This document shows positions 272-24,470 of a stretch of DNA of 27,301 nucleotides, in pieces. Where the stretch lies: positions 1-27,301 of the forward strand of contig DAOVZQ010000001.1 in assembly GCA_030635025.1 (NCBI GenBank). The letters are read 5' to 3'. Within the stretch, counting starts at the first letter, position 1. Each line of letters opens with the position of its first letter. Position numbers and translations under genes: made by a program. The notes beneath the pieces were generated by a model, which was given only the letters and a program-made list of their open reading frames with translations, was not told where the DNA came from and did not search any database. This DNA is from a bacterium. Its GTDB lineage: Bacteria > Krumholzibacteriota > Krumholzibacteriia > LZORAL124-64-63.

Positions 272-656
272 CGGTCTTTCCCTTGGCCTTCTTCTCGGGC
301 CCCACCCGCGTCGCCCTGACCCCGTTTGCTGCCATCCACGCGGCCCCGCTGATCTTCTTCTTGCCGCCGCTTCCGTTGGGCCCAGCCTTTGCCTGCGCGT
401 CTTCCGCCGCTTTCTTCTGCGCCTCGATCATCGCCTCGCGCTCCTCGAACATGACGGCCAAGCGTTCGTCGCTCCAGGTGTTGAGGATCTCGTCCGGGCC
501 GACATGCCACTCGGTGAGGGCGACGAACATGGCGCGCGAGAACTTGTCGTCGTCGCTTAGGGCTTCGTCTTCTCGGCCTTCGCCTTGTTTCCGGCCATCT
601 GTTGCAGCGCCCTCGTCCACAACGTCTTGAGCAAAGGGAACACCAGTTGCAGCACC
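261..656 (-). CDS. Tail assembly chaperone T segment (lambda gpT-like), probably made as a GT frameshift fusion
   Basis: The -1 frame relative to 557..1063 is open from 656 to 261. It contains EWHVGPDEILNTWSDERL, like gpT-type segments, and lies between chaperone G and TMP. Confidence 0.7.
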   Translation of the reverse strand, partial: GAATGVPFAQDVVDEGAATDGRKQGEGREDEALSDDDKFSRAMFVALTEWHVGPDEILNTWSDERLAVMFEEREAMIEAQKKAAEDAQAKAGPNGSGGKKKISGAAWMAANGVRATRVGPEKKAKGKTDGD

Positions 657-1063
657 TCACAGGCCGCGTCGATGATCTCCTCGTCCGTCGCCTTGCCCTC
701 GCCGATCGTGCCGTCCGGAGCGGGCTCGTACTTCTTGAGTTCCGGCGCGTACTGCCACAACATGTCGAGCATGAAGTCGAACCCGTCGCACATCAGGGTC
801 GGCATCAGATCACAGAGCGATGGCAGGGCCTCGCGATTCTCCATGGTCCCGTCGTCGTTCATCTTGTCCAGCAGATCAAGGACCGGGTCCTGGTTGTTCC
901 GGACCAGCGAGCTGACCATCTCGCCCAGCGATTTGCGAAACGCCCTGTTCGCCAAGATGGACTTGACGGGCAGGGTCAGGACCTCGCCCGCCATAGTCAC
1001 CTCGAACGTCTGGAGGATACGCTCTGTCTTACTCCGTTTCTCCTTTGGCTGCGCGTCTGTCAT
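557..1063 (-). CDS. Tail assembly chaperone G
   Basis: 168-aa helical protein between major tail protein and TMP, with an overlapping -1 ORF at its 3' end. Confidence 0.75.
   Translation of the reverse strand: MTDAQPKEKRSKTERILQTFEVTMAGEVLTLPVKSILANRAFRKSLGEMVSSLVRNNQDPVLDLLDKMNDDGTMENREALPSLCDLMPTLMCDGFDFMLDMLWQYAPELKKYEPAPDGTIGEGKATDEEIIDAACEVLQLVFPLLKTLWTRALQQMAGNKAKAEKTKP
632..638 (-). promoter_or_regulatory. -1 ribosomal frameshift slippery heptamer C CCU UUG
   Basis: X XXY YYZ in the G reading frame (TTC CCT TTG), inside the only window where the -1 frame is open. A possible stem GTTGTGG/CTGCAAC starts 8 nt downstream. Confidence 0.7.
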
Positions 1064-1081
1064 GGCAGCACCTTTCCCCGC

Positions 1082-1669
1082 CTATGCGGATGTGATCTCG
1101 AAGACCTTGTACATTCTCTCCCCGGCGCTCCGGGCCGCGTCCATCAGAAGCACCCACGTGTATCGGAACATCACGTCTCCCAGTTTGTTGAACGCGATCT
1201 CCTCGATACTGTCGAGGCGCACTTTGGGGAAATACCAGACCTGCCCGACTCCGGCGGCGGGTGCCGGGCCGTCACCAGAGAACGCGAGGCTCTGTGTGGC
1301 GACAATCGCCTTGTCGCCACCCCCCAGCACGTTCGGGTTGGTCCCCGCCGCAGCCGCAACGGTATAGGTTGACGGCGCCAGCGTCTCGCTGATCGTCAGC
1401 AGGTCCGACTCCTTCGTGTCGAAGGTGACGGTCCCGCCCTCGCGGATCAGCTGGGCCTCGATCGCCGCCCGGTGCTCCTGGACGATGGTCTCCTGCCACT
1501 CGAAGTTGAGGTTCAATTTCGCGCCCTCGTCGGTCCCGGCGGTCATCTGGTCCCAGGACGAAAAGTCTATCACCTGGTCGGCGACGTTCACCGGGTCATT
1601 CCCGGCCACGAAGTCGGTCGTGTAGGGCTCCACAATACCCCTGAGGATGTTGATCTCTGTTACAGCCAT
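1082..1669 (-). CDS. Major tail (tube) protein
   Basis: 195 aa, beta-rich; between tail terminator and chaperones; GGAG RBS upstream of ATG. Confidence 0.78.
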   Translation of the reverse strand: MAVTEINILRGIVEPYTTDFVAGNDPVNVADQVIDFSSWDQMTAGTDEGAKLNLNFEWQETIVQEHRAAIEAQLIREGGTVTFDTKESDLLTISETLAPSTYTVAAAAGTNPNVLGGGDKAIVATQSLAFSGDGPAPAAGVGQVWYFPKVRLDSIEEIAFNKLGDVMFRYTWVLLMDAARSAGERMYKVFEITSA

Positions 1670-1689
1670 GATGGTCTCCTAAGGGCGGC

Positions 1690-2121
1690 CTACGTTACGC
1701 CCAAGAATGTGACGGTGAAGAAACCCAACACCATCGGGATGCCCTTGTCCGGCCCGTCTGCCTCGATGGGCGGCTCCTGGGGTTCTTGCTCGGGCAACGC
1801 GCTGTGAATGCCGTATGTTGCCCAAGTGGCTCTCTGTTCGGGCTGGTTGTCCGGGGTGCCTATGAGGGCCACCTTGACCAATTCATAGACCTCCATCGCG
1901 TCCTCGGCCGTGTTTGCGTAACACATGACGGTCCATGACGGATCGCGGACCAGGCCAACCGCGTCGGTGTCGCCCCCGTTTCCTGCGAAGACGACGCTCC
2001 CGCGTTCCCGCGGGATAGCCCGACTGGCACGGGGCGAGCCGATATCCTTCGCGGCGACAACTGCGGTCAGCGCCGAGTTGTTGACCAAGAGGTCCCGGAT
2101 GTGTTCGCGCGTCGTCGTCAT
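1690..2121 (-). CDS. Tail terminator / tail completion protein
   Basis: 143 aa, starts with IRDLLVNNSALTAVV helix and has a WTVMCYA strand; position just before the major tail protein. Confidence 0.65.
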   Translation of the reverse strand: MTTTREHIRDLLVNNSALTAVVAAKDIGSPRASRAIPRERGSVVFAGNGGDTDAVGLVRDPSWTVMCYANTAEDAMEVYELVKVALIGTPDNQPEQRATWATYGIHSALPEQEPQEPPIEADGPDKGIPMVLGFFTVTFLGVT

Positions 2122-2537
2122 TACGTGACCACCCCGTCGATGATCTTGCGTATCCGCCGCTTCACGGCGTTGAAGGCCGGCCTCAGGTACGGTTGTGCCC
2201 TCATCCCCTTGACCGAGGCGAACGGATGGGGGGCCCCGGGCCAGAACAGCGCCTTCTTGGTCTTCGGCCTGATCCGCTCCTTACTACGGCCGAAAAGGCC
2301 TGTCCCGAGTTCGAGGTGCGCCCCGTAGCCCGACTGCGTGAAGATGTGCCACACGGCGCCGGTGATCTTCTTCCACGCTATCGAGCGGCGGTTCGTGCCC
2401 GTCTTGTAGGGCGAGCGCTGGACTGCCTCGACTTCCATCTCCTCCATGACCCGGGTCATAACCGTATCGCCTGCCGCGAGGATCTTCTTCTCCGCCGCCT
2501 TGTTGAACTTGAGGGTCATGCCCGAATCGTTGGCCAT
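2121..2537 (-). CDS. HK97 gp10-like tail completion protein
   Basis: Motifs SPYKTGTNRRSI, YGAHLELGT and GMRAQPYLRPAF characteristic of the HK97 gp10 family. Confidence 0.85.
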   Translation of the reverse strand: MANDSGMTLKFNKAAEKKILAAGDTVMTRVMEEMEVEAVQRSPYKTGTNRRSIAWKKITGAVWHIFTQSGYGAHLELGTGLFGRSKERIRPKTKKALFWPGAPHPFASVKGMRAQPYLRPAFNAVKRRIRKIIDGVVT

Positions 2538-2538
2538 G

Positions 2539-3129
2539 TTACGACCTCACCCTCTCGCACTCGGCTTCGACGTGGTGTTCGTCCACGTCGTCGTCCTGAC
2601 GGTGGATCTTGATAGGCGACAGGGGGCCAGCGTCGACCACGCTCGAATCCGACGGGTTCACCACATCGATTATCCTGTCCCGTTCGGTGATATCTGTCAG
2701 CCGGGGCAAAAGCAGGTTCACGTCAACCACCTCCGCCCGTTGGCTCGTGTTGCTCTGGTTCACGGCGCCGAAGCCCGACAAGACCTCGTGTCGGCACGCC
2801 ACCCCGGTAGCCAGATCTGTCCACACGGGCACCCTCTGCCCACCCCCATCGACTTCCCACACCCTACCCCCCGAAACGTACGCCCCGTCCCCTGTCGACC
2901 CCGCGAGCGCGAAGGTGTTTGCCGTGGCCGCCGCAACGTCGAAGTCCCCGTTCGCCGCCGTGTTGCCCGTGACATCCTCGACCCGGACTTTCTCCCCGTC
3001 TGAGAACCCGTGCCCGGCGCCCGTGACCACTATTGGGCTCGCGTTCGTCGCATCGGTCACAGCCCGGCCGTCACGCTGGATCGTGCACGTGTGGATCAGG
3101 GCGGCGGTGAAAGCATCATCCGAGGCCAC
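2539..3129 (-). CDS. Head closure protein with an inserted E1-FCCH-like beta domain
   Basis: GTG start with AGGAGG RBS. LIHTCTIQR...DGGGQRVPVW...VACR and final HHVEAECERV fit SPP1 gp16-type head closure proteins; residues ~22-90 form an insert. Confidence 0.7.
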   Translation of the reverse strand: MASDDAFTAALIHTCTIQRDGRAVTDATNASPIVVTGAGHGFSDGEKVRVEDVTGNTAANGDFDVAAATANTFALAGSTGDGAYVSGGRVWEVDGGGQRVPVWTDLATGVACRHEVLSGFGAVNQSNTSQRAEVVDVNLLLPRLTDITERDRIIDVVNPSDSSVVDAGPLSPIKIHRQDDDVDEHHVEAECERVRS

Positions 3130-3502
3130 TGCGTTGCTCCTCCTTGCGCTGGATGTCCCAACTGTTGTACGGCGTGTGCCCCTTCTCTATGACGCCGCGG
3201 GCCGCCACGTTGGCATCCGCGTCCTCGCGTAGCGCCGCCGCCTGCTTGCGAAGGGACTCGGCCGCCGCCCTGTCGTCCATCGTCCAGTTGAGCGTCTTCT
3301 GCATCTTAGCCAGCCGCGACTTGCTACTCGCCACGGCCTCGAGGGCCATCGCCGATGCGAGCCGGACCGTCGCCGTCTCGCCAATCCAGTAATCCAGTTC
3401 CTCGTCGGTGAAGACCGGGGACGCGGAATCCGTGTCCTGGATCGTCAACCGGACTTGCGAGAGCGTGGTTGTCAAGACCTCTGGATCGTAAGTGAATGTC
3501 AT
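3116..3502 (-). CDS. Head-tail adaptor (connector) protein
   Basis: 128 aa with VRLTIQDTD...FTDEELDYW motif, directly upstream of head closure. Confidence 0.75.
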   Translation of the reverse strand: MTFTYDPEVLTTTLSQVRLTIQDTDSASPVFTDEELDYWIGETATVRLASAMALEAVASSKSRLAKMQKTLNWTMDDRAAAESLRKQAAALREDADANVAARGVIEKGHTPYNSWDIQRKEEQRSGLG

Positions 3503-3520
3503 CTCGCAACCTCTGCCTGA

Positions 3521-5437
3521 TTAGAAGAATATGACTACTGGCGATGCTGCGCTGATAGTGGCGGTGGATTCTGCTGACGCGAACTCCAGGGCCCCCATCG
3601 TCCATACTCCGGCCTGGCGACAAACCCCGTCCACATCCACGTCAAAATCATAGTCCGGGAACTCTGTGGTCGGGAACATGGCCGAGACATCGGTGCCGGC
3701 GCCGATCCCCTGATTTGCGGCAACCAGGTGGAAGTCCCCTCCGGCGTAGTCAGAGAACGTCGAGGTGGTGTCTTCGTCTACGATTTCTCCGGTCTCGGGA
3801 TACCACTCGGGGGGGGCCGGAGTTTGATCCCAACGTAGTCCGCAGTACAGGTTGTAAGCCCTATCGTCCGCAGTCCCACCGTCAATGATATTGTTCCGGA
3901 CGACAAACATAGAGCCCAGTGTCCCTACGAAGCCGATGTCATCGACACTCCTCATCACCGAATTATGGAGCACGTAATTCGTGCCTCGGCATGGACTCCA
4001 TACCGCGATACCCCAAGCGGCTTCTCCACCATCAAAGATGTTGCCTATCGTATAGATGTCTTCGGAATCCGACATGGTAAAAGGGATGTTCGCGCTTGAC
4101 ATCAGAATCCTGTTGTGCGCCACGAGAACATTGGATGACTGCGCGTAGACCGACAAGCCGTTCGCATGAGTTCCCCAACAGTACTGGACAAGATTGCCTG
4201 TAGCCTGACTGTCAGAACATCCTTGAAACCAAATCCCAACATACCCAACATACTCAACCGTATTGTTGTCCACTTTGTTGCGATCCCCTGTCAACATAAT
4301 TCCGGGGTTGTATTGAGAATGGTGGACGTAATTCGAGGTGACCTCGAACGCTTCACCTTCGTGCAAGCGAATCGAGCCAACCCGCTCCATCGAACGCAGG
4401 TTATGGATCTCGTTGTTCCGAACGATGATATCAGATGCCGAGGTGTTCCACGTGTAAACCCCTACCCCGCCCGTCTCGCCCAGATCGCCATAAAACCCAC
4501 GAATCTCAAAACCTTCAAAGACCACGTACTGGCAACCAGAGAAGTTGACACCTACGGGCCTCTGGGACACGCTGTAAACATGATTCGATGGGGCGTCGGA
4601 GTCGTGTGTCCAGATAAAGACGGTGTTGTCCTTGTAGCCAACCGTGCCAGCGGAATTCATCACGCCGGGATGGCCAAGAATGGAATATCCACCATCGACA
4701 TCCGTATGGAGATCCGCCCCGATATCGTCAAAAGTAATCGTGTCTGTAGCGGGATTGAAAGATGTGATGGGCGAGAAAGACAACGAACTTGAGATATGGA
4801 AAAGCATGACGTAAGAATCATCCCAATACGACGAGTCTGATTGAGTGAAGTACGTTTGATCCGTAACGGTTGTTCGTGTCGCGGAAGTGGTCTCAGAGTC
4901 CAGCGGAATAGGCGTCTGCCCTTCGTGGGTGTTGAAGAATATCGGATATTCCGGGGCGGGATCTTGGGAAAACCAGAGAAACGCCGCGTCTTCATAAACT
5001 GACTGAAACGTAGCGAACCCTGCGGGTGCGGTGGTGTACCAGATGTTGGCCCAGTTTTCGTTGCCATAGCACTCCGTGGATGTCGTGCATTGCGTCCACG
5101 AAGGAGCCCACACGTCTGCACCCTCCAGGATAGCGTCGGGCGACCCCCAACCATCGCCCTTGTAGGTGATCAGCGAGACGCTCGTTCCGCTTGTGGCAAT
5201 CACAAGGTTGCCACGATAGACGACATCGCCACGAAACAGGAAGGTGTCGCCGGCCGCCGGCGTAGTCGAGTCGGCCACGCCGGTCGCATTCGGATCGCCG
5301 GGACAGTGTTTCCATGCCGTGGAGTCGGACGTGCCGTTGTTGGCATCCGACCCCGAATCGAAGTCGATGTAGTAGTCCGCGCAGAACGCCAGGCCAACGG
5401 TCAGGAAAAGGAAGAGAGTGAGTGTCGCGATCCTCAT
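3521..5437 (-). CDS. Signal-peptide-bearing right-handed parallel beta-helix (pectin-lyase-like) protein, 638 aa
   Basis: Preferred start ATG 5437: MRIATLTLFLFLTVGLAFC then ADYYIDFDSGSDANNGTS..AWKH. Repeated xxVxxNxxx beta-helix rungs (IIVRNNEIHN, VTSNYVHH, VDNNTVEY, ATGNLVQY). C-terminal GDFHL..NQGIGAG..DVDG..R....TMGALEF resembles choice-of-anchor Q endings. Confidence 0.8.
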   Translation of the reverse strand: MRIATLTLFLFLTVGLAFCADYYIDFDSGSDANNGTSDSTAWKHCPGDPNATGVADSTTPAAGDTFLFRGDVVYRGNLVIATSGTSVSLITYKGDGWGSPDAILEGADVWAPSWTQCTTSTECYGNENWANIWYTTAPAGFATFQSVYEDAAFLWFSQDPAPEYPIFFNTHEGQTPIPLDSETTSATRTTVTDQTYFTQSDSSYWDDSYVMLFHISSSLSFSPITSFNPATDTITFDDIGADLHTDVDGGYSILGHPGVMNSAGTVGYKDNTVFIWTHDSDAPSNHVYSVSQRPVGVNFSGCQYVVFEGFEIRGFYGDLGETGGVGVYTWNTSASDIIVRNNEIHNLRSMERVGSIRLHEGEAFEVTSNYVHHSQYNPGIMLTGDRNKVDNNTVEYVGYVGIWFQGCSDSQATGNLVQYCWGTHANGLSVYAQSSNVLVAHNRILMSSANIPFTMSDSEDIYTIGNIFDGGEAAWGIAVWSPCRGTNYVLHNSVMRSVDDIGFVGTLGSMFVVRNNIIDGGTADDRAYNLYCGLRWDQTPAPPEWYPETGEIVDEDTTSTFSDYAGGDFHLVAANQGIGAGTDVSAMFPTTEFPDYDFDVDVDGVCRQAGVWTMGALEFASAESTATISAASPVVIFF

Positions 5438-5451
5438 ATCAGCCTGTCCTG

Positions 5452-6546
5452 CTACTCGAACGTGCAAACGACGGAGAGCCCAAAAGGTTCGGTACCGGAA
5501 TGGATGGCATCCACGTCGAAGTAGATCTCGTCGCCGGTCGCAACATCGTCATTCGACGTGTTGATCGTTTCGTCGTTGGCGAAGAACTCGTCGCCGATGG
5601 TGACGGCGGCGCTCAACATGTCGGCATTTGCACCGCCCCTCCTGCGGACCACCATCACGTTTGTGGTACCGGTCACGCCTTTCGTGTTGACGGTGGCCAG
5701 AACATCTGTCAGCTCGAGCCCGTTCAGTGCTGCCGGTATTGGTATGCCGTTGATGCCAGATCCGACCGTCACAGACGTAGCCGAGTCGAAGATGTTGATA
5801 GCAACCATACGAGAACGAATGGCCACATTAACCACGGGAACGATGTTCACAAGGATCTCGCCATTGCTGACGTGCGCGGCTACTACCTGCCCGACGCGCA
5901 TCGGGAACTCCGTGGGGGCCGATGGGCATGTGTCTGTGGTGGCGCCTGAAACGGCGGCCGACAGAAAGATGTCGTCGCCCTCGGAAAACGCGCTGGTATT
6001 GAGATCCCGCACGAGCCCGAAGACTGTTACCTTTCCGTTCGTGTTGTGCGCAATATCATGTGTGGCCACGCCGAGCAGCCGGCTGGTATCCTCCGCGTCC
6101 GCTCGGGCGAGCGCGATTGTCGGCCTGTTGCCCGTGGCGCCCGAGATGTATACCACCTGGCCGTTGGTGACCTCTTCGCCCGTCTCGTTGCGCGCAACCA
6201 CCCAAGACTCCTGGCCAATCTGGTTCGTCACCCCGGTGACGTTGGCCCGAAACGCAAGCGTGCCAGCCGCAGAGTCCCAGAACATCTGGCCGGGGTTGTG
6301 TTCCTCGGGGGGCTCGACATCGGTGTCGAACTGGATTGCGTAGGCGTAGTTGGCTACCACCCGCCGGACACCATCGACGATCACATTCATGGCGCCAGAG
6401 CCAAACAGGGCGATCAGGGCCAGGACGATGAAGGCCCACATGGTCTTGCGGGGAAATCGTCTGGTGCGCCGCGCAGGTACCTGTCTCCGCGAAGCCCCAG
6501 CAGTTCGCCTTACCGTTCTTGGCGTAGTCTGTGGCCATTTCCTCAT
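5452..6546 (-). CDS. Membrane-anchored protein with a capsid-cement (DUF2190)-like middle domain and a C-terminal beta-sandwich
   Basis: ATGA overlap with upstream stop. Arg-rich N-terminus, then hydrophobic MWAFIVLALIALFGSGA. RNETG..VYISGATG.RPTIALA...LLGVATHDI...GKVTVFGLV module. Confidence 0.6.
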   Translation of the reverse strand: MRKWPQTTPRTVRRTAGASRRQVPARRTRRFPRKTMWAFIVLALIALFGSGAMNVIVDGVRRVVANYAYAIQFDTDVEPPEEHNPGQMFWDSAAGTLAFRANVTGVTNQIGQESWVVARNETGEEVTNGQVVYISGATGNRPTIALARADAEDTSRLLGVATHDIAHNTNGKVTVFGLVRDLNTSAFSEGDDIFLSAAVSGATTDTCPSAPTEFPMRVGQVVAAHVSNGEILVNIVPVVNVAIRSRMVAINIFDSATSVTVGSGINGIPIPAALNGLELTDVLATVNTKGVTGTTNVMVVRRRGGANADMLSAAVTIGDEFFANDETINTSNDDVATGDEIYFDVDAIHSGTEPFGLSVVCTFE

Positions 6547-7139
6547 TCCACCGACTCCGTGATACCGAAAAGGATATCGACCGTCCCGCTCGCCTGGCCG
6601 TCCGCCCAGACGCGCGCCCAGGCCTTGGTCCCCGCGTCGTGCCGCTTGCCGATCACCTCTACCGACACTTCCGTTGACGCAGCGCCAGTGGGGCGGAAAA
6701 CGATCTCAAGGAGCGTGTTCTCGGCAATGGCTGTCGCGGTCGTCGCCCCGAAAGCGATTTGCATCTGGTGGGTGCTGTTGAACTGCTGCACGTTCTCGAC
6801 GAAGATCTCGTGCAGGTCGTAGAAGTTGTTCCCGGCAACGTGCGGCGTGTCCGCACTACCCATAATCTGCACGAAGTCGCCAAAATCATCGTTCCCGGCG
6901 TCCATCTGGAAGGTCGTGAAGGTCTCGTGATCGGCGCGATGCGTCTCTCCAGACGGCACGGCGGCAAGGCCAAACCAATGCTCATAGGCGTGGACATGCC
7001 CGTCGAGTTTGGCTGTCAACCTCGCGGCCTTCCTGGCGCTGTCCTCGCCGTCCTTGACCGTCGTTCTCGCGCCACACAACGCCGCGATTACCATCAGGGC
7101 GCACAGTGTGACCTCGCACCTTGTCGGCTTGCGAATCAT
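6543..7139 (-). CDS. Hypothetical exported beta-rich protein, 198 aa
   Basis: ATG 7139 overlaps the upstream TGA. MIRKPTRCEVTLCALMVIAALCGA looks like a signal peptide; His-rich HVHAYEHWFG follows. Confidence 0.65.
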   Translation of the reverse strand: MIRKPTRCEVTLCALMVIAALCGARTTVKDGEDSARKAARLTAKLDGHVHAYEHWFGLAAVPSGETHRADHETFTTFQMDAGNDDFGDFVQIMGSADTPHVAGNNFYDLHEIFVENVQQFNSTHQMQIAFGATTATAIAENTLLEIVFRPTGAASTEVSVEVIGKRHDAGTKAWARVWADGQASGTVDILFGITESVE

Positions 7140-7648
7140 GGCAGCGCCCTCCACATGGCCTCGAGACCAACCGTATCCGAGTCGTCGTTCAGGAAACTGA
7201 ATGTCACCGAGTCGGTGGCCCTGAAGTTCATCGGAGGATCGAACTGGATAACCAGGTCGGCGTCGTTCTGCATGCTCTCCGAGATGACCACCGTATCGAA
7301 CTCCACGCCGGACCCGTGGTCAATCTGGGCCAGGAACGGGGTGGTGGTCGTCGCGTTCGCACTGAGGTGGAGCCGGACCTCGACCAGTTCCCAGGCCGTG
7401 GTCGGGTTGATCGTCGTCGTGGTATCGCCCGCGACCAGCGCCAGGGTTGTAGATATCAACAGGCGGGTCTCGCCGCCGGTGGCCTGCGTGACGAAGGGCG
7501 TGTTGACGCCACTGCTCACAGAGCCCGACCTGACCTGGCCGCGCCCGTCGTTGAAATCGCCCGCGGCCGAAGCGAGTGCGAGAAGGGCGGCAAGACAGAG
7601 GATCGATATAGCGATGCCGCCCGGTGTGATCTTTCCATGCGTGCTCAT
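7136..7648 (-). CDS. Hypothetical exported beta-sandwich protein, 170 aa
   Basis: GGAGG RBS; MSTHGKITPGGIAISILCLAALLALASA signal peptide, then AGDFNDG; alternating beta-strand pattern. Confidence 0.7.
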   Translation of the reverse strand: MSTHGKITPGGIAISILCLAALLALASAAGDFNDGRGQVRSGSVSSGVNTPFVTQATGGETRLLISTTLALVAGDTTTTINPTTAWELVEVRLHLSANATTTTPFLAQIDHGSGVEFDTVVISESMQNDADLVIQFDPPMNFRATDSVTFSFLNDDSDTVGLEAMWRALP

Positions 7649-7663
7649 GTCTTGCCTCCCTTC

Positions 7664-8203
7664 TTAGTTGGCGCTGAAGAACATCTGGGTGAAGTCGTCC
7701 CCATCGGCGCTCGTGCACAGTAGGCCCAGGACGCTTCCGTTGCCTTCGGTGAGGACCCGGTTACCGCCGAGGGTGTAGCTCGTCCCGTCGTCGAATTGCA
7801 TCGTGTTGGTCCCATCGGTCCCGGCAACGATGACGATCACTTCGCCGAGCGTAGCCCCGGTGATCGTGATGCCGGTAATGCTCTCATCGCTGGTCAGGGT
7901 AATGCGTTCGGTCGTTGCGGCGGCGCTGATCGTCGTGCTCGGGCTTGTGATGACGGCATTGGTATTGGCGAGAACCCGCTTGCCGTGGGTCAATGTGCCG
8001 GTCACGGTAACCGTACCCGTCACAGAAAGGGTCCCGGCAAGCGTTGAGGTCCCACCGGTGACAACGTTCAGGTTCTGTGTCCGAACAGTGTTGATCTGCT
8101 GCGTCTGCCCGTCGTTGAAGGGCTTCAGGGCCATGCAAAGCACGCCCACGACCAGCATAAGGGCCAAGGCGATAACGGCCTGTCGAATCGTTCGGTTCTT
8201 CAT
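7664..8203 (-). CDS. Hypothetical exported Thr/Gly-rich protein, 179 aa
   Basis: Real start ATG 8203 with GAGGAG RBS (the ORF-track start at 8494 overlaps the upstream gene). MKNRTIRQAVIALALMLVVGVLCMA signal peptide, then LKPFNDG and fibre-like GTLSVTGTVTVTGTL repeats. Confidence 0.7.
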   Translation of the reverse strand: MKNRTIRQAVIALALMLVVGVLCMALKPFNDGQTQQINTVRTQNLNVVTGGTSTLAGTLSVTGTVTVTGTLTHGKRVLANTNAVITSPSTTISAAATTERITLTSDESITGITITGATLGEVIVIVAGTDGTNTMQFDDGTSYTLGGNRVLTEGNGSVLGLLCTSADGDDFTQMFFSAN

Positions 8204-8229
8204 GTCAGTCTCCTCGGCCCTGCTGGGCC

Positions 8230-8667
8230 CTACTTCTTGGTGGTCTTTTTCTTCTTCTTGGCGGTTCGTTTCTTGCGGGTCTTCTTCGCGGGTTTCTTGG
8301 GCTTCTCCGGCGCCTCTGGGGCAACCTCTTCGTCGAGATCGATGTGGGTCGCGGGCTCTTCGTCGACCATCGTCGTCACAGGCGCCGGCGCGGCGCCCCG
8401 GCGCGGCAACGCCTCGGGGAACGGGTGCGGATCGTTGCGCCCGCGCACCCTCGGCTTGGCCATCCCAACCAGTTCGATCTTGTCGGTCCGCCACTGCTTG
8501 TGGATCGTCGGGAAAGGACAGCCGGCGCGCTTGAGGGCCTCGACCTGAACGCCGTTGTTGTCGTCCAGGAGCCGTTTGTAGCGGGGCGTGATGTCGAAAT
8601 ACGAGTCCTTCGACACCTTCATGATCTCGCGCCCCGTGTTCTTGAACTTCGTTCCTTTTTCAGGCAT
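8230..8667 (-). CDS. Hypothetical protein with Lys-rich C-terminal tail, 145 aa
   Basis: ATG 8667 with GAGGA RBS; ends KPKKPAKKTRKKRTAKKKKKTTKK. Confidence 0.65.
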   Translation of the reverse strand: MPEKGTKFKNTGREIMKVSKDSYFDITPRYKRLLDDNNGVQVEALKRAGCPFPTIHKQWRTDKIELVGMAKPRVRGRNDPHPFPEALPRRGAAPAPVTTMVDEEPATHIDLDEEVAPEAPEKPKKPAKKTRKKRTAKKKKKTTKK

Positions 8668-8687
8668 CGGACTATCCTCTCTGTCGT

Positions 8688-8749
8688 GTTGGGCGGCGCC
8701 CGGGACCCGTTTACGTGGGCCCCAGACGCCTGCCCGGTTTGCCCCCAAC
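8688..8749 (-). promoter_or_regulatory. Structured RNA element downstream of the capsid gene
   Basis: 14-bp stem GGCGTCTGGGGCCC/GGGTCCCGGGCGCC (3 G-U pairs, loop ACGTAAAC) at 8695..8730, enclosed by GTTGGG/CCCAAC; no U-tract. Confidence 0.45.
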
Positions 8750-8755
8750 GCTATC

Positions 8756-9697
8756 CTACGCCTGGAGGGCGTTCGTGAGCCGGTAGCCGGAGCCAGCGGT
8801 GACGACCTTCTGGTCGTACCAGTGGTTCAGGCGGATCATGTCGGAGATCCGCTCGTCGTCTCGCCAACGACTGACGAGTCGGCCTGCGACCGCGTTCGGA
8901 GACCCATTCCACGCAAACGTCTGGGCCATCGAGTTGCTGCGAATGCCGAGCGCCTCGACGAAGCCGATGTAGACCGTGTCGCTCCAGATCGACGACATGG
9001 AGGCTGCGGCCCCCTTGGCCGACGTGTTTTTCTTCGCCGATGCCACAACAACGCGGTCGACGTTGAAAATCTGTGCGATGGTGGCCTCGTTGACGACGGT
9101 CGGGCGGTCGATACTGCCGGTCGCCTTCGCGCGGTCCACGATCAACGGATGATCTTGGAGCGCCTCGAACACGTCGATGTCCATCCCGATGACGTTCGGC
9201 TGCTTGCCGGTGGCGTCGCGGATGGCCTTGGTGCCGACCTTGACCTCGGCAATCGGATCGCCGGTGTCTTCGTCCCACCCCGCCGTCAGGGCGGTGGTGG
9301 CCGTAACGCCGGCGTCGATGGCGACCTTGAGTGCGATCTCCCTGTCGACGCCGATCATCTCCGTAAGGAAATTCACAACGCCAATTTCGTCGTTGATCGG
9401 CACGTCCGCGTTCTGCAAGACCTCGTCGGGGAGGGGCTCGGTGAGCGCGTGGTCGTTGGCAGAGTAACTGCCGGTCGTGAAGTGCCGCGTCACGACCTCG
9501 GCCTTCGTCCCGGGCGCGCGGTTCGTGGCTTGCTGGCGCGCCGCCTCTCTCAGGACGTCGTTGATGAAATAGACATCCGATTGCTTGACAACCGCAATGC
9601 TCGGCGCCAACGCGTCAGCCATGAAAACGCCGTTCGCGAACTCAATCGAGACGTTGGTGAGCGCTGCATCTTCGTGTACTTCTTTCAGATCTGGCAT
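8756..9697 (-). CDS. Major capsid protein (HK97 fold, capsid-E/Mu gpT-like group)
   Basis: 313 aa. HEDAALTNVSIEFANGVFMADALAPSIAVVKQS start and DPIAEV..TGKQPNVIGMDIDVFEALQDHP segment are typical of this MCP group; follows protease and cement genes. Confidence 0.92.
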   Translation of the reverse strand: MPDLKEVHEDAALTNVSIEFANGVFMADALAPSIAVVKQSDVYFINDVLREAARQQATNRAPGTKAEVVTRHFTTGSYSANDHALTEPLPDEVLQNADVPINDEIGVVNFLTEMIGVDREIALKVAIDAGVTATTALTAGWDEDTGDPIAEVKVGTKAIRDATGKQPNVIGMDIDVFEALQDHPLIVDRAKATGSIDRPTVVNEATIAQIFNVDRVVVASAKKNTSAKGAAASMSSIWSDTVYIGFVEALGIRSNSMAQTFAWNGSPNAVAGRLVSRWRDDERISDMIRLNHWYDQKVVTAGSGYRLTNALQA

Positions 9698-9720
9698 GGT
9701 TCTGTTCTCCTTTGTCTCGG

Positions 9721-10125
9721 TTAGGCGATGGAGCGCTCGGACCCAGGCGGCAACACGAAGACGGGAATGAGTTCCCCGGCTGTCGTAGACGCCGCAAGGG
9801 CGATGGCGAAGATCTTGTCCAGGTCGGTGGTCGACTTGACGCCGCGCCCGCTGGCATCGGCCAACAGGTAGTCGCCAGCCGCAATCGCGCCAGCGTTACC
9901 ATCCACCGTGCACCAGGTCTTGCCGTAGACGACAACCTCAACGTCTTTGTTGGCCTCGGTCGTGGTCTGGCCGGTGACGCCAAAGACCTGCTCGCCAGCG
10001 CCGACAAGGTCAACCGAGACCTTCGTGGCGTCGGTGTTTGTGGTGTCCAGTTCCACCGCAAAATACCGAGCAATAGCGACCCCGGATGTGGCAGGAATGG
10101 AGATGTTTGCATTGCCTTCAGCCAT
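9721..10125 (-). CDS. Capsid cement / decoration protein (DUF2190-like)
   Basis: 134 aa, VFGVT...KDVEVVVYG...AGAIAAGDYLLADASGRGV...AIALAAST.AGELIPVFV; between scaffold and MCP. Confidence 0.8.
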   Translation of the reverse strand: MAEGNANISIPATSGVAIARYFAVELDTTNTDATKVSVDLVGAGEQVFGVTGQTTTEANKDVEVVVYGKTWCTVDGNAGAIAAGDYLLADASGRGVKSTTDLDKIFAIALAASTTAGELIPVFVLPPGSERSIA

Positions 10126-10191
10126 AATGGCTCTCCCTCGGGCCTACTCTCAATTCGGCCCATGTGTGGTGTGTTTCTTCACTCGGCGCCA

Positions 10192-10650
10192 CTACGACTT
10201 CTTCGGGCCGAGCGAGCGGAGGGCATCCGTGTAGGAAGTCCCGTCCTTGGCGGCCTTTTCCTTGGCGGCGGCGTCCAGTTGACTCCGGTCGTTGAGATCC
10301 GGGGTCCCTTCGTCATCGCCCATGCCTTTGACCTCGCCGCCCTTCTCTTCGGCGAAGGTCATGCCCAGCGCGACATTCTCGATCGCACCGGCCACGCCCT
10401 CGTCGGTCTCGGCGTCGGCGAACTGTTCGCGAAGTTTGGTCTTGGCGTCGTCGGGCAGTTCGGCATTGGCGATAGCGTCCTCGATCTTCTGGGACATTTC
10501 CGCCTTGGCCTTGTCTGCCTCGAACGCGTCCACCTTCGCGGTGAGTTCGGCAACTTCGCCGTCCTTCGTGTCCAGAGCGGCCTTGAATTCGTCCCGCTCC
10601 TTTGTGGCTACGTCCAGGTCGGCCTGGAGAGCCTCTTCTTTGTCCGCCAT
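10192..10650 (-). CDS. Nested scaffolding protein from an internal in-frame start, 152 aa
   Basis: GAGGAGACTATCATG: strong RBS before in-frame Met388, exactly where the coiled coil MADKEEALQADLD begins; analogous to Mu I/Z and lambda C/Nu3. Confidence 0.65.
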   Translation of the reverse strand: MADKEEALQADLDVATKERDEFKAALDTKDGEVAELTAKVDAFEADKAKAEMSQKIEDAIANAELPDDAKTKLREQFADAETDEGVAGAIENVALGMTFAEEKGGEVKGMGDDEGTPDLNDRSQLDAAAKEKAAKDGTSYTDALRSLGPKKS

Positions 10651-11811
10651 GATAGTCTCCTCGTGTTGCTCTTGGATTTCCTGGACGATATCGGGCCGAG
10701 CCCGCGTGAACGTCTCCAGGTCGATCTCGGACAGATTGATGGCCTGTCCAGCCGTTACTGCCTTCTCGATCCACTCGGGGACCGTCTCGCCGAGGGCCTC
10801 GTAGTCCGTGGCGAGCTGCGCAGCGGCGTAGCGCGCCAGATCAGCGTCCTTGCACATCTCGGCGACCTTGGCGTGCTGTTCCCCGAACCCGCCGGGCGTG
10901 TAGTGCGCGACGGCCTGGCCAAGGCGCTCCTTGGTCGGCCCGCTGTCCTTGTCCTCCCATGTCCGCAGGGCCCAGGTGGTCGGGTCGTTTTCGTCCAGAG
11001 CCAATGCGAAGGCCCCGCGCGGCAGCGGCTTGCCGTCGATGACGACCACGGACTCGTTCATCTTGACGGCCGCCGGGATCTCGTCCTCGGGGACCCCGAT
11101 GGAGCGATAGGCCGAGCGGATGGTCCGCTTGACCCCGGCCACGGCGTTGCTCGGAACCTCGGTGCGGCGGCCGTGAAAGCCCTGGGGCGAGAACGCGGCG
11201 GCGGCCCGGCCCAACTGCGTGCGGGTGACCTTGTCCTCGGTGTTCTCCCAGAGCCGCAACCGCCAGCCGCTTGAGTCCTCGGCGTCGGGGACGTAGGCGA
11301 AGGCCTCGGCGGGGAAGGCTTGGCCGGCCTCGCTCTTTGTCTCCTGGAGATCCTCGGCCGATTCGGCATCAAAATCGAAAGAGTCATACTTGCCGTCCGC
11401 CCCGTCATCGGAAAACGCAATCTTCCGCATCCCCTTGACGTGAGGAACGCCTGCGCCCAAGAACGTCACGGCGCGCAAGCCGACGGGGTCGTGCCAAACC
11501 TCGATAGACCGCGTTTTGTATCGCCCAGCCTTCACGGCTTCCATCAGATCCGTGGCCATGCCTGTCAGGCGGGCAAAAATGCTGTTGCCCCGGCGCTCAA
11601 TCTTCTCGACCCACCCCGCCGCAGGGCCTTCTTGGGCATGGTCAAGGGTCACGGGCGCTTCATGTTGGGCCGGGTTGTACCCCTGCGCCATGGCGTCGAG
11701 ATCCTTTCGGCCGAACTTGCCCTTGTAGCCATAGTCACCCGTGCGGAAGATCTCAACATCGTGAAACGCCGCGCTCAGATCGTTGGCCTTACCCTTTTCG
11801 TCGTCAGGCAT
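10192..11811 (-). CDS. Mu gpI-like prohead protease fused to scaffold, 539 aa
   Basis: Start MPDD at 11811 with GAGGAG RBS. VEIFRTG, EAPVTLDH..GPAAGWV, YKTRSIE and LRAVTFLGAGVPHVKGM motifs; acidic coiled-coil C-terminus. Confidence 0.85.
   Translation of the reverse strand: MPDDEKGKANDLSAAFHDVEIFRTGDYGYKGKFGRKDLDAMAQGYNPAQHEAPVTLDHAQEGPAAGWVEKIERRGNSIFARLTGMATDLMEAVKAGRYKTRSIEVWHDPVGLRAVTFLGAGVPHVKGMRKIAFSDDGADGKYDSFDFDAESAEDLQETKSEAGQAFPAEAFAYVPDAEDSSGWRLRLWENTEDKVTRTQLGRAAAAFSPQGFHGRRTEVPSNAVAGVKRTIRSAYRSIGVPEDEIPAAVKMNESVVVIDGKPLPRGAFALALDENDPTTWALRTWEDKDSGPTKERLGQAVAHYTPGGFGEQHAKVAEMCKDADLARYAAAQLATDYEALGETVPEWIEKAVTAGQAINLSEIDLETFTRARPDIVQEIQEQHEETIMADKEEALQADLDVATKERDEFKAALDTKDGEVAELTAKVDAFEADKAKAEMSQKIEDAIANAELPDDAKTKLREQFADAETDEGVAGAIENVALGMTFAEEKGGEVKGMGDDEGTPDLNDRSQLDAAAKEKAAKDGTSYTDALRSLGPKKS
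10762..11319 (-). repeat. Tandem ~87-aa protein domain repeat inside the protease/scaffold
   Basis: Repeat 1 (aa 165-250) and repeat 2 (aa 262-350) share 19 identities over the first 47 ungapped positions. Confidence 0.75.
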
Positions 11812-13489
11812 CGTCTGTCTCCTCTTGGTCGCCGTCGGCCGCCCCTGTTTCATCGTCGGGGGCGCTATCGGGCTCATTCTTGGCTCGCAACGTCTGTGTC
11901 AGCGCCTGCACGCTCTCGCGCATCGCAAGGTATCCCTCGGCGCTCGACATGCCGGGCTCGTCGTCATCCTCGGTGGCCTCTGCTTCCACGTCGTCGGGGT
12001 TCTCGACCCCCATGAGTGTCAGGGTGAGCCGCCGCACCTGCTCGTCGCCCTGGAGCCCCAGGGCTGTGGCCGCCGCCGCAACGGCCTTCAGTCGCTCGGC
12101 CGCCTCTTCCTCTTCCACCGGCGCGGCGAGGATGGTGACATTGTTGCTCCCGGTGTCGCTCCCCGCCGACTGCTCGAGCGCGAACTCGGAGATCAGCGCA
12201 TAGGTGTCGGTCAGCAACTTCTGGTACGCGGAGAACATCCGGATCATCGGCCCGACCATGGCCGTCGCGGTCGCCAGGCGGAACGATTCGCCGGCCCCCA
12301 GGTAGATTGGGAAGATCCCGGCATAGAGGCCGCACGCCTGGAGGAGTTGGCCCCCGTCCTTGATGGCGTCGCCCCCGCCGGTCTCCTGCTTGATCTCGAC
12401 GGGCGCCACAGCCTGGTTGTGTACCTCTTCGGACCCGTAGGCGTGCGGTGGGTTCGTGTCCGTGCGATCGGTCGCGGTGATCGTCGAATCACGGGCCGCG
12501 ACGAAGTTCGCCACATCTGTCGGGCCGCCCTTGATAGCCGTCTTGGTGATAAACTGGGCGCGGGCCTGCTGGATCGCCGACCGGGCCTTCATGAACTTCA
12601 GGAACAGGAACGCCCAGTCCATGCAACCGGCCAAGACGGACAGCCCCGTGCTGTCGAACCCTACGGCGTTGAACATCAGGTGATAGACGGCGGCCTTCTC
12701 GGTAAATCGGACCTTGCTGCCGTGTGTGACCTTCACCGTGCCGTCCTCGGCGACATTCACCGCGTGGGCGTTCTCGGCGAGCGTCGTGTCTTCCGTGACG
12801 GTCACGTTCTTTTCCCGGAAGGCGTCGAGGGACAGATAGAGCCACGTGGTCTTCTTCTGGGCCTTGTCAACCGTCTCGCGGACGTAGAGCCATACCTCGT
12901 CCGAGTCCTCGGGGTTCGAGATAGTGCCGACCATCTGCAGTGAATCGATGACCCGGACCTTGACCACCCCGTTGGTCACGAACAGCGCATAGTACAGGTT
13001 GCCGTCCACCAGGGTGCGGTCCGAGTTGCGGCGCTGGCCGAAGGAAGAGAGCTGCAGGCGGTTTGCCGGGTGTTCCCAGAAGGCGTCGAGTGTGTCCTGT
13101 TTGCCCTCTTCCTCGGCCTTGTGGGCCACAATCCCGTTCCCGATGCTGTAGTCTGTCCACATCCGGACGATCTGATGGGAGGGCCCATCCCAGCGGAAGA
13201 ACTTGCGGGCGCGCTGCGCCACCTTTTTGTTCGTGAGCGAGCTCGCCGCGTCGCCCCGCCCGGTCAGACCCGCAAACAACCTCTCGCTCGTTTGGCGGAA
13301 TTCCTGGTACTCAGCGTCGACGCGCATCAACAGGGCATCGCGGTCGGACACGGCGCCGCCCGCAGTCGAAGCCATCTCGACCGTGGCGGCCGTGTCGGAC
13401 ATAGCGGTCGCGGGAGCGGCCTTGCCCTTCTTGCGGGGGGTGCGTTTTGTGGTCGTTTTCGCCATCGTTTGCGCTCTTGGTGCTCGCAT
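11804..13489 (-). CDS. Portal protein
   Basis: About 560 aa (alternative start 13465) directly upstream of and overlapping the protease; helical/beta pattern, FWEHPANRL..LVDGNLYYAL segment, acidic disordered tail. Called mainly from size and synteny. Confidence 0.8.
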   Translation of the reverse strand: MRAPRAQTMAKTTTKRTPRKKGKAAPATAMSDTAATVEMASTAGGAVSDRDALLMRVDAEYQEFRQTSERLFAGLTGRGDAASSLTNKKVAQRARKFFRWDGPSHQIVRMWTDYSIGNGIVAHKAEEEGKQDTLDAFWEHPANRLQLSSFGQRRNSDRTLVDGNLYYALFVTNGVVKVRVIDSLQMVGTISNPEDSDEVWLYVRETVDKAQKKTTWLYLSLDAFREKNVTVTEDTTLAENAHAVNVAEDGTVKVTHGSKVRFTEKAAVYHLMFNAVGFDSTGLSVLAGCMDWAFLFLKFMKARSAIQQARAQFITKTAIKGGPTDVANFVAARDSTITATDRTDTNPPHAYGSEEVHNQAVAPVEIKQETGGGDAIKDGGQLLQACGLYAGIFPIYLGAGESFRLATATAMVGPMIRMFSAYQKLLTDTYALISEFALEQSAGSDTGSNNVTILAAPVEEEEAAERLKAVAAAATALGLQGDEQVRRLTLTLMGVENPDDVEAEATEDDDEPGMSSAEGYLAMRESVQALTQTLRAKNEPDSAPDDETGAADGDQEETDDA

Positions 13490-13518: not shown

Positions 13519-14574
13519 TCAAGCCTCAGGTTCCACCTCTTGCTCGCCGGGCGGTGGTCTCAGAATCGGCTCGACGATGAGCCCGATGACCGCGGTGGTC
13601 CCCACCAGCCGAAGAAATGATTGCTGGCCGGCCGGACTCACGCCCTCGGCGACCGATGCCCTTGTGGCGCCGAGGGTCACGATTGAGCAGCGGCAACGGG
13701 GATGTCCCGGCGTGTTCGTATGCCCAGAACCGAACGCCCCCCGGATATCGATCCGCCCATCCGCCTCGTTGGGCTCACAGATCTGCTGAGACACTCGATC
13801 ATCGCCCACGGTGATCCACGTCTTCTGCGTGGAACCGAGCGACAACCCTTTCTCAAGGGCCGCGGTGGACATCATCGAGTTCATCTCGGTGTTGGCTATC
13901 AGCGCCGCCCGGTCGTCGCTGAAACTGTCGAACTTGGCGCGCAGGGCCCGCGCCACGTCTGCCACGCCCCTGTTTTTCTGGCGGAGGGCCCGTGCGATGG
14001 TCTCCGACAACTCTGTCAGCGACGTTTCGTCGAGCCCGACCACCCGGCCGGTGGACCACGCGCGGGCAAACTGGCGGATCTCTTCGGGTACAGGCAGGTC
14101 GCGGATGCCAGGAATCACCTCGACGAATCGGGCGGGGCAGGAAAACTGGGGCACCTCAGGCGCAGGCAGGCCGAACTCCTTGACAGCGGCGTCCTGGACC
14201 TGGCGGGCGGACTCGGTGTAGGCGACGGCCCCGTTCTCAGAGAGCAGGGTCTCCAGCCGGTCGGACAGCGCATCGACGGACGGGGAGATGATGGCCCGCG
14301 CCTGCTGCTCGATCTGGGCGACCTCTCCATCCGATGCCTCGCGGTCGGAGGGGATCACCTGGGCCCACTGGGCGGACAGGGCGGCGATGGACCGGCGTGG
14401 CATAGCCCGCTCGAGGGCCCGGAAATACCGCTGGAGGCGCTCGGTGGTCGCGTTGACGATCCGCCGGCCGTTGCGGCTCGACACGGACCCCGGTACCTCG
14501 GCCGACGTTTCGTCGAGGAAGGCGCGGAGATCCTGGACAAGGCCTGCGGGGTCTGGGGGGGCGGCGATTACCAT
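13519..14574 (-). CDS. Head morphogenesis protein (SPP1 gp7 / Mu gpF-like)
   Basis: RAALIANTE, KTWITVGDDRV..IC..NE and PGHPRCRCSI motifs; ATG 14574 overlaps the upstream TGA. Confidence 0.88.
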   Translation of the reverse strand: MVIAAPPDPAGLVQDLRAFLDETSAEVPGSVSSRNGRRIVNATTERLQRYFRALERAMPRRSIAALSAQWAQVIPSDREASDGEVAQIEQQARAIISPSVDALSDRLETLLSENGAVAYTESARQVQDAAVKEFGLPAPEVPQFSCPARFVEVIPGIRDLPVPEEIRQFARAWSTGRVVGLDETSLTELSETIARALRQKNRGVADVARALRAKFDSFSDDRAALIANTEMNSMMSTAALEKGLSLGSTQKTWITVGDDRVSQQICEPNEADGRIDIRGAFGSGHTNTPGHPRCRCSIVTLGATRASVAEGVSPAGQQSFLRLVGTTAVIGLIVEPILRPPPGEQEVEPEA

Positions 14575-14912
14575 CAAGGGGTCCCGTGTGGTGTCTGAAT
14601 ATGGGCCGTGACGGCGTCGACCAAGCGGTCAACGGTCTTGCTCTGCGCTTCGGCAGCTGCGGCCGTCCGGGCGGCGTCGACGGATATGTCCAGTATGGCT
14701 TTCTGCATCGCCTGCCGGTCAGAGTCGGTTTTCACCGAAAGAGAGTCGATGGCAGCGGTATTCACGGCGATAGTCGTCGTCTGCGTGGTCTCCCGCGCCT
14801 CATCTGCGACCGCCGGGTCCCGTATTGCCCCGAAGAGCGCAAGTGCGGCCACGAGAAAGGCTCCGATTCCTGCGGTGGTGTTCTTGGCAACCTGCTTCGC
14901 CTTGGGAGACAT
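14574..14912 (-). CDS. Single-TM coiled-coil protein (holin-like or exported; uncertain)
   Basis: AGIGAFLVAALALFGAI hydrophobic segment followed by Ala-rich helices; AGGA RBS. Confidence 0.5.
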   Translation of the reverse strand: MSPKAKQVAKNTTAGIGAFLVAALALFGAIRDPAVADEARETTQTTTIAVNTAAIDSLSVKTDSDRQAMQKAILDISVDAARTAAAAEAQSKTVDRLVDAVTAHIQTPHGTP

Positions 14913-17437: not shown

Positions 17438-17913
17438 CGGTCTTCGTCCTTTCGTTTGGGTGCGCGGTTCTTGTCTTCGGCGAGGTCGGCCTCAAATTGC
17501 GCCGTCCGAGACGTTGGTACATACGAGCATCCCGGCACGCCGTGGTCGGATAGGCAGCGCCAATCCTCCTCGGAAATCCCTGACAAGGCCGCATCGATAG
17601 CAGCGATCCTTCTGCCGAAGGCCTCAATGAGAAGCGACTGGTGGTCGCCTATGCGCGCCTGTTCCGCGCGCGCCCGGACTACGGTTGTGTTGATCTGTGT
17701 TTGAGCGGCGTTCACTATCGCCTGGTTAGCGAGTTCCCCGAAGACAAACGCATTGATGTCTTCCTGCGTGTGGAAGGGGCGCGGACTCGCAGTGAGCGCC
17801 GGGGTCTCTTCGGGCGGAACTGGGGGGCGCGTTGCCCTTCCGATTCCGAAACCCAACCCGCCGCCTACCAACACGGCCACGATGCAGATGGCTATCCTTT
17901 CGCTCGTTTTCAT
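17434..17913 (-). CDS. Membrane-anchored hypothetical protein, 159 aa
   Basis: ATG 17913 in ATGA overlap with GGAG RBS; IAICIVAVLVGGGLGFGIG TM, Pro-rich linker, helical region. Confidence 0.65.
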   Translation of the reverse strand: MKTSERIAICIVAVLVGGGLGFGIGRATRPPVPPEETPALTASPRPFHTQEDINAFVFGELANQAIVNAAQTQINTTVVRARAEQARIGDHQSLLIEAFGRRIAAIDAALSGISEEDWRCLSDHGVPGCSYVPTSRTAQFEADLAEDKNRAPKRKDEDR

Positions 17914-24468: not shown

Positions 24469-24470
24469 TT

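Follow-up and report, generated by a model that had tools for sequence, protein, structure and literature searches.

In the archaeal virus HFTV1, a hexamer of the turret base protein sits on each hexamer of the major capsid protein (MCP) and carries a trimeric turret head protein, in which residues 57–198 form a galactose-binding-like module (bioRxiv 10.1101/2024.12.09.627619; PDB entry 8qpg). The base and head genes are consecutive (gp30 and gp31), both proteins dock via short N-terminal stalks and a PBSX protein was put forward as the sole probable homolog of the base (bioRxiv 10.1101/2024.12.09.627619). We describe here a cassette of five genes, G1–G5, on the minus strand of contig DAOVZQ010000001.1 (the window in what follows, which is this one whole 27.3 kb contig, the longest of a fragmented 2.9 Mb metagenome-assembled genome, MAG). 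The model of one product, G2, resembles the HFTV1 base, and its gene adjoins that of G3, part of whose model aligns less distinctly with the head. All five begin with a predicted leader of the general secretory (Sec) type, whereas the proteins of HFTV1 lack export signals and join the capsid within the archaeal cell.

Other described systems share single traits with the cassette. T5 Llp, T1/phi80 Cor and lambda Lom and Bor are exported proteins, encoded beside virion genes, that act on the host envelope, where they prevent superinfection or stop progeny from being lost on debris. Unlike the cassette proteins, which lack a lipobox and are homologs of virion-type modules, they are lipoproteins or outer-membrane proteins of small size and have no relation to virion parts. 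XepA of PBSX and YomS of SPbeta are late phage beta-sandwich proteins of a fold similar to that of G2, and XepA is exported and absent from particles (PMC6834076). Unlike G2, they belong to a monoderm host, are encoded in lysis cassettes, form pentamers and have no transmembrane segment or classical leader described (PMC6834076); G2 and XepA/YomS have no sequence similarity. Finally, endolysins with Sec signal peptides or signal–arrest–release (SAR) domains exist, for example fOg44 Lys44 and P1 Lyz, and endolysin families have repeatedly switched between leaderless, lysis-released forms and Sec-exported forms (PMC6116005), much as the G3 family has switched its leader. Endolysins are, however, single peptidoglycan-cutting enzymes; here a whole multi-gene cassette toggles, and none of G1–G5 matches a lysin family.

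Judged from sequence features, the cassette proteins are probably exported. As to what they do, we tentatively favour the reading that G1–G5 are a Sec-routed version of a mobile head-appendage cassette acting on envelope glycans; an envelope target seems about half as probable as export itself.

Five leader-bearing genes in the head module

The slot between the MCP gene and the head–tail adaptor gene holds six genes, a 145-amino-acid (aa) protein and then the cassette, in the order of transcription:

7664–8203, minus strand: G1, 179 aa
7136–7648, minus strand: G2, 170 aa
6543–7139, minus strand: G3, 198 aa
5452–6546, minus strand: G4, 364 aa
3521–5437, minus strand: G5, 638 aa

G1 and G2 are separated by 15 nucleotides (nt), G2/G3 and G3/G4 overlap by ATGA, 14 nt separate G4 from G5 and 18 nt separate G5 from the adaptor gene. 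The original prediction, made from the same DNA, had noticed five tightly packed genes between MCP and adaptor, with basic residues and a hydrophobic core at the start of each product and virion-like bodies behind, and our analysis agrees with it on the coordinates, the two overlaps and the 15 and 14 nt gaps, on the N-termini and on the bodies, which are fibre-like in G1, beta-sandwich or jelly-roll in G2 and G3, cement-like in G4 and a beta-helix in G5.

Leaders were called with our own heuristic of hydrophobicity and charge, and the −3/−1 sites come from a rule scan only. In each of the five proteins the highest 19-residue Kyte–Doolittle peak is N-terminal (1.87–2.63), and no such peak stands at the N-terminus of any of the ten virion genes on the flanks (557 to 13489). 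Windows of 13 residues reach 2.5–3.2 on the same scale without a charged residue, and the uncharged, hydrophobic cores, 13–20 residues long, are all preceded by basic residues: three or four Lys/Arg in G1, one Lys plus a His in G2, three in G3, 12 in G4 and one Arg in G5, which are kept in homologs. Sites with small residues at −3 and −1 follow residues 25 (G1), 28/29 (G2), 24 (G3), 52 (G4) and 19 (G5). Leader-type genes number seven among the approximately 34 on the minus strand, and a run of at least five arises in 0.2% of permutations. When compared with SAR-type segments, the core of G2 is rich in Ala, Leu and Ser, and those of G1 and G5 are strongly hydrophobic.

Three other ways of reading these N-termini were tried and rejected. 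The lipobox expected of a lipoprotein processed by signal peptidase II, [LVI][ASTVI][GAS]C, is absent from all five proteins; the nearest stretches are L-A-F-C in G5 and A-A-L-C in G3, with Phe or Leu at −1, and G1, G2 and G4 have no Cys in register. A twin-arginine translocation (Tat) signal is unlikely because the arginine pairs of G4 are not conserved: they are missing in P0018, a homolog 87% identical to G4 with a much shorter n-region, and the S/T-R-R-x-F-L-K motif was not found. There is also a conserved Met, present in homologs too, at Met24 of G1 (8134–8132, one residue before the site) and at Met53 of G4 (6390–6388, at the site), from which internal starts could bypass the leaders; these were set aside because no Shine–Dalgarno-like sequence precedes either of them.

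The first three proteins have no Pfam or PHROG match. G1 consists of a leader (residues 1–25, with an 18-residue core and a site after Ala25), a fibre-like stretch rich in Thr, Gly and Val and a C-terminal domain of about 110 aa; its nearest Atlas clusters are all viral, and Atlas look-ups gave only unnamed viral clusters. In G2, a leader (1–28) and a conserved disordered linker of about 30 residues precede a beta-sandwich (62–168), which AF2 models with a predicted local distance difference test score (pLDDT) of about 90. G1 and G2 have in common an FNDG motif, placed three to four residues past the predicted cleavage site, after which the next 10–20 residues are identical among close homologs despite differing leaders. 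This segment may be a common docking element, to judge by its conservation.

Among 48,161 chains, the best match of the G2 model is the HFTV1 turret base (8qpg_TD), with a Z of 10.2 and a root-mean-square deviation of 2.6 Å over 96 of 114 residues, and the match to XepA and YomS has a Z of 8.4. The HFTV1 base is a beta-sandwich of about 114 aa, and leaderless homologs of G2 have 105–125 aa. G3 has a leader (1–24), a helical stalk with an HxHxxEHW motif and a jelly-roll (54–196; AF2 mean pLDDT of 90, with 113 homologs); AF2 draws the leader as a single helix running into the stalk, with low confidence there. The folds nearest to the jelly-roll are carbohydrate-binding modules (CBMs) of the CBM35/CBM6 type, at a middling Z of 7–8, and Foldseek returned only generic jelly-roll capsid proteins (TM 0.25–0.39). 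Against residues 53–199 of the HFTV1 turret head (8qpg_TC) the Z is 6.5, which is within the common range. The stalk and CBM-like jelly-roll of G3 may recall the head protein of a turret that has been proposed to bind and process host surface glycans, but G3 lacks the deacetylase domain of that protein. Profiles of the G2 and G3 families matched no virus or phage chain among PDB sequences at E ≤ 10; with no sequence similarity, we treat the likeness to the turret as a structural and syntenic analogy and not as homology. A complex prediction with mature G3 and mature G2 was uninformative (score 0.00) and speaks neither for nor against their association.

Although a gene caller placed the start of G4 at Met36, the true start is the ATGA-coupled one further upstream, because P0018 has Arg at the position of Met36 and keeps the upstream basic N-terminus. 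From this start, G4 has an Arg-rich N-terminal tail of 35 residues and a hydrophobic segment (37–52), which looks like a signal anchor or else a signal cleaved after Ala52. Two modules follow, A (approximately 70–235) and B (approximately 245–364, of fibre type); within the former, residues 119–230 match PF09956 (Phage_cement_2) with 25.8 bits against a cut-off of 24. The two modules are found apart in more than 80 fibre-like proteins, most of them leaderless and six with signal peptides. The stretch of approximately 70–235 shares 31–40% identity with annotated tail fibres of Roseobacter phage CRP-6, Pseudomonas phage Rollin and Synechococcus phage S-SM2, which, unlike G4, sit in tail modules, and most metagenomic homologs of module A are leaderless. 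In the window itself, a 287-aa protein on the plus strand (24465–25325) has weak similarity to module A, with identity at 20 of 58 residues and a pairwise E of 8e-5; the paralogy suggested for it earlier is plausible but weak. An unrelated podophage with an SU10/P22-type portal (L017:7731–11972) encodes three tail-module proteins (405, 342 and 309 aa) with signal-peptide-like N-termini, one of which is a homolog of G4; fibre-type proteins outside this cassette may thus bear export signals more widely.

After its leader (1–19), G5 is a right-handed beta-helix that matches PF13229 (61.7 bits against a cut-off of 25.9, E of 8e-17), PF05048 (E of 6e-8) and the tail spike family phrog_7458 (E of 3.5e-5). 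By these matches it is probably a glycanase or a spike-like beta-helix that cleaves glycans. The GC content at third codon positions (GC3) falls to 0.58–0.62 over codons of approximately 100–500, compared with about 0.82 in the neighbours (overall GC content 0.50–0.55 versus 0.62), and the first 100 codons, leader included, have native composition. This base composition suggests that the core of G5 was recently acquired. GC3 is at virion-gene level in G1–G3 (0.79–0.82) and is 0.74 in G4. On the minus strand we found no promoter-like site for the cassette and no convincing terminator between its genes.

Leaders in relatives and in the wider families

Leaders are present in every cassette relative that we found, at 87%, 70%, 66% and 36% identity, so that the conservation of the leaders in related phages, which the original prediction had proposed to check, extends from close relatives to distant ones. 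Contigs of sister samples (70–87% identity) carry homologs of G1, G4 and G5 with leaders, and the G1 homolog of L003 (73% identical) has one as well. In L016, which comes from an unrelated study, a basic protein is followed by G1, G2 and the start of G3, all three with leaders. Leader sequences diverge at least as quickly as the mature parts, with charge and hydrophobicity retained: for a G2 homolog (P0100), the overall identity of 66% breaks down into 46% for the leader and 70% for the mature portion, and between G4 and P0018 the values are 66% and 88%.

The most distant relative, L020, has an MCP only 36% identical to that of the window. Its genes run from cement and MCP through two small proteins to G1-like, G2-like and G3-like proteins of 335, 153 and 201 aa, the first of them 41% identical to G1 in its C-terminal part, and then to the start of a beta-helix; these last four have leaders, and G4 is absent. 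L019 likewise lacks G4 and passes from a G2-like gene to a leader-bearing G3-like gene and directly to the adaptor. The leader of G5 is kept in L020 and in L015; in the latter, the G5 homolog (L015:1085–1889) has a frameshift after about residue 100, and is a pseudogene or an assembly error. Given that L020 and L019 are without G4, and given the GC3 of G4 and G5, we conclude that G1–G2–G3 is the conserved core and that G4 and G5 are later additions; the cassette is thus not the unit of five that the original prediction had taken it to be. The arrangement is also found with a different MCP family (phrog_1328) in L053, an unrelated phage, where the MCP is followed by a 346-aa protein with a leader, a 104-aa protein, a 151-aa protein with a leader, a G3-like protein with a leader and the adaptor. 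In L123 and L140, too, a leader-bearing neighbour lies beside the G3-like gene.

We scanned IMG/VR and the JGI metagenomes with G3-family profiles, using one gene-calling rule for all loci. The family has 438 representatives at E ≤ 1e-3, and among the best 150 of these a leader is found in about 13–15% (the hydrophobicity peak picks out 22 of 150, the leader rule 20 in a tree of 179 rows), in most cases ending in a classical AxA-type site. In 12 distinct loci a leaderless G2-like gene (105–125 aa in 11 of them and 471 aa in the twelfth) adjoins a leaderless G3-like gene, and where the context is long enough the pair lies between MCP and adaptor, as in L035 with its phrog_10 MCP and phrog_442 adaptor. 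The states of the two genes agree in every pair: both have leaders in three (the window, L016 and L020, which are not fully independent), neither has one in 12, and there is no mixed pair. Homologs lacking leaders, which had been named as a possible objection, thus do exist, but as whole leaderless cassettes in other phages and not as a sign of noise. On the 179-row tree of the G3 core, from which the leader columns were excluded, the leader state needs 15 changes, at least seven of which are forced by well supported branches.

The leaderless forms start where the leader would end. P0156, a metagenomic protein of 838 aa, begins at the end of the G5 leader (G5 19–106 against P0156 1–91, 51% identity, E of 7e-23), and leaderless homologs in the G2 family likewise start at the corresponding point. 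P0156 moreover fuses its leaderless G5-like beta-helix to a C-terminal G3-like domain, which argues for a functional link between G3 and G5. Outside the metagenomic viral sets, a scan of genome contigs gave only two G3 homologs, both leaderless and in MAGs. Two queries for G3-like genes drew a blank among 50,697 GenBank phage records, and a search of GenBank phages for G5-like genes was likewise negative. G2 and G3 belong to large uncharacterised families known only from uncultured phages, usually leaderless and side by side in the MCP-to-adaptor slot. As we also found no paper on such a cassette, the earlier description of an undescribed system seems fair.

The late operon and its putative host

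The minus strand of the window is a siphovirus-type late operon, in the following order of genes:

terminase, MuF-like protein, portal and protease–scaffold, minus strand
9721–10125, minus strand: cement-like protein, 134 aa (PF09956, 26.0 bits)
8756–9697, minus strand: MCP (phrog_1005, E of 7.6e-57), upstream boundary of the slot
8230–8667, minus strand: 145-aa protein, directly after the MCP gene
3521–8203, minus strand: G1–G5
3116–3502, minus strand: head–tail adaptor-like protein (matching only PHROGs of unknown function), downstream boundary of the slot
head-closure, tail terminator and tube genes, minus strand

The N-terminus of the adaptor-like protein resembles the gene in adaptor position of L014, and the head-closure and tail-terminator genes come next. 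The 145-aa protein has an acidic middle, a Lys-rich C-terminal tail and no leader. Its homologs stand between MCP and G1 in L003, L005, L016 and L020 (92 aa there), and the 104-aa protein of L053 is its positional analogue; it is part of the conserved neighbourhood and outside the exported set, and its sequence is one that may suit a DNA-binding or internal head protein. Pfam and PHROG scans of the window gave no recognisable holin, endolysin or spanin. Two small minus-strand proteins (14574–14912 and 17434–17913), each with one N-terminal transmembrane segment and no family match, are candidates of the holin/spanin type.

The content of the slot varies among relatives. In L014 (MCP 34% identical), it is occupied by nine unrelated leaderless genes (L014:10960–16639), among them those for a GH43 glycosidase and for a pair of paralogs, each of about 267 aa. 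The MCP-to-adaptor slot is a hotspot for glycan-directed cargo.

A scan of IMG/VR with the MCP gave no relative, and GenBank phages match it at no more than 31% identity. Phages with a G2/G3 cassette have SAMN18200493–95 and SAMN10404973 as source samples. A longer assembly of the same phage exists (ENA ERZ23498442, scaffold_912, 36,767 bp), which adds 4,072 bp before the start of the window and 5,394 bp past its end. The genome bin that holds the contig encodes Omp85 and LpxC, so that the destination of the exported proteins would be the periplasm if the bin is the host.

Possible envelope action or periplasmic staging

In the reading that we favour, each member of the cassette would have gained an N-terminal Sec-type signal in this lineage, cleavable in G1, G2, G3 and G5, and in G4 a signal anchor with a basic cytoplasmic tail of 35 residues. 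The proteins would be synthesized late from the capsid operon, partly via translational coupling, and would be transferred across the inner membrane of a probably diderm host. In the periplasm, they would act jointly on envelope polysaccharide, with G3 and G4 binding and G5 cutting, and the outcome would be that the glycan receptor of the phage itself is masked or destroyed, or that escape is eased. The leader is generic, transferable and selected across the whole cassette, and is for this reason better taken as an export signal than as a specific protein–protein contact. We prefer action on envelope glycans because the toggling of leaders resembles that of endolysins, because the bodies look glycan-directed and because XepA provides a precedent. 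In the models and matches, the folds that point to glycans are the CBM-like G3, the beta-helix of G5 and module A of G4, which occurs in annotated tail fibres.

Several points weigh against this reading. Export is deduced from features of the sequence, and the CBM-like match of G3, at Z 7–8, would speak to fold and not to function. One leader-bearing G3 homolog, that of L077, is an exception in having a leaderless upstream neighbour. About 9.4 kb of the 36.8 kb assembly lies outside the examined sequence and may hold leaderless paralogs. The link to the host is that of binning alone: in a search of the 208 genomes of the bin's phylum, no G3-like gene was found outside this contig and only three other genomes have even a distant relative (25–29% identity) of the MCP, so that the contig may come from a free phage that base composition placed in the bin. 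Finally, if G2 is a turret base, that is, a purely structural adaptor to MCP hexamers, its export would serve no obvious end unless the turret is still built, which favours decoration of the particle.

Such decoration by way of the periplasm is the strongest rival, although we consider it unlikely. The exported and processed subunits would wait in the periplasm and join finished heads when lysis mixes the compartments: G2 hexamers would settle on MCP hexamers and be topped by G3 trimers and by G1, G4 and G5 as fibres, giving virions with turrets that bind and cut glycans. In this scheme, which as a whole we rate just as low, independent origins of the route, several in number, would lie within one large family of head appendages known only from uncultured phages. 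It gains from the best fold match of G2, the HFTV1 turret base, and from the alignment of G3 with the CBM of the turret head, as also from the adjacency of the HFTV1 base and head genes and from the fact that this turret is added onto MCP hexamers. The cassette is part of the head module and is coupled to capsid genes, a purely structural base protein would be co-exported, all-or-none leaders suit a multi-part assembly, the cleaved mature proteins would equal the leaderless forms and the highly conserved segment that follows the leaders of G1 and G2 is what one expects of a docking element. On the other hand, no tailed phage is known to us in which head proteins are added from the periplasmic side, and a literature search gave no case of signal peptides on virion or decoration proteins matching this cassette. 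Binding after lysis would also compete with dilution, and G4, with its long cytoplasmic tail, has the look of a protein stably anchored in the membrane; some homologs have long segments that look uncleavable. The turret match, moreover, is one of fold only, with no sequence match to any solved structure.

The same G2 fold can be turned towards lysis, an explanation to which we give little credence: the exported beta-sandwich proteins would act on membrane or wall like XepA, assisting lysis or setting its timing, and G5 would break down an outer polymer layer. The resemblance of G2 to XepA/YomS, the PBSX protein as the only probable turret-base homolog named by the HFTV1 authors, the late synthesis of XepA and its export without incorporation into particles, and the want of a recognisable holin, endolysin or spanin in the window all fit this. 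Yet the cassette lies in the head module, away from lysis genes, XepA itself has no transmembrane segment, a Z of 8.4 is one that beta-sandwich matches commonly reach, and five fibre- and CBM-like proteins exceed the needs of a lysis helper. Slightly less probable still is that the hydrophobic N-termini do not serve export, and instead plug capsomer pores in the virion or tether the proteins for assembly at the cytoplasmic face of the membrane. The turret proteins of HFTV1 dock through short N-terminal stalks, the leaders replace or extend exactly that end, and the leader helix of G3 is continuous with the stalk in the AF2 model, albeit with low confidence there. But a generic pattern of basic, hydrophobic and small residues is shared by five unrelated folds, the leader sequences drift freely, homologs have textbook AxA sites and, by the positive-inside rule, basic residues ahead of the core place the body outside the cytoplasm. 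The explanation that we consider least probable, by a little, is cargo of the moron type, that is, inserted genes for host conversion or superinfection exclusion, which a prophage would express and which would have nothing to do with the virion. The slot is variable (nine unrelated genes in L014, the GH43 enzyme included), the base composition of G5 is foreign and exported proteins are known among phage late genes (lambda Lom and Bor and T5 Llp). However, the cassette has neither promoter nor terminator of its own on the coding strand, its genes are linked by ATGA coupling and its core has native composition, which together argue against a moron: GC3 in G1–G3 equals that of virion genes, and only G5 and, mildly, G4 deviate. 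The core is also conserved together with the MCP down to 36% identity, the window contains no integrase or host flanks, no related prophage was found in 207 genomes of the phylum and the 90 genomes of the family to which the host may belong contain no homolog of G5.

The interpretation in the original prediction is supported in part, and the two functions that it had offered, decoration after lysis and remodelling of the envelope, are the models still in play. The virion modules of tailed phages are regarded as cytoplasmic, whereas here an entire multi-gene appendage cassette bears predicted export signals across deep divergence, and its families have switched many times between leaderless and leader-bearing forms. 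With it, two large families of uncultured phages are defined, a G2-type base and a G3-type head of stalk plus CBM, which in their models appear to be the bacterial-phage counterpart of the only archaeal-virus turret solved so far. Both outcomes would be novel. If the staging model is true, some virion parts may be assembled from outside the cytoplasm. If action on the envelope is true, phages may routinely turn head appendages that bind and cut glycans into periplasmic tools, which would be a new class of late accessory proteins.

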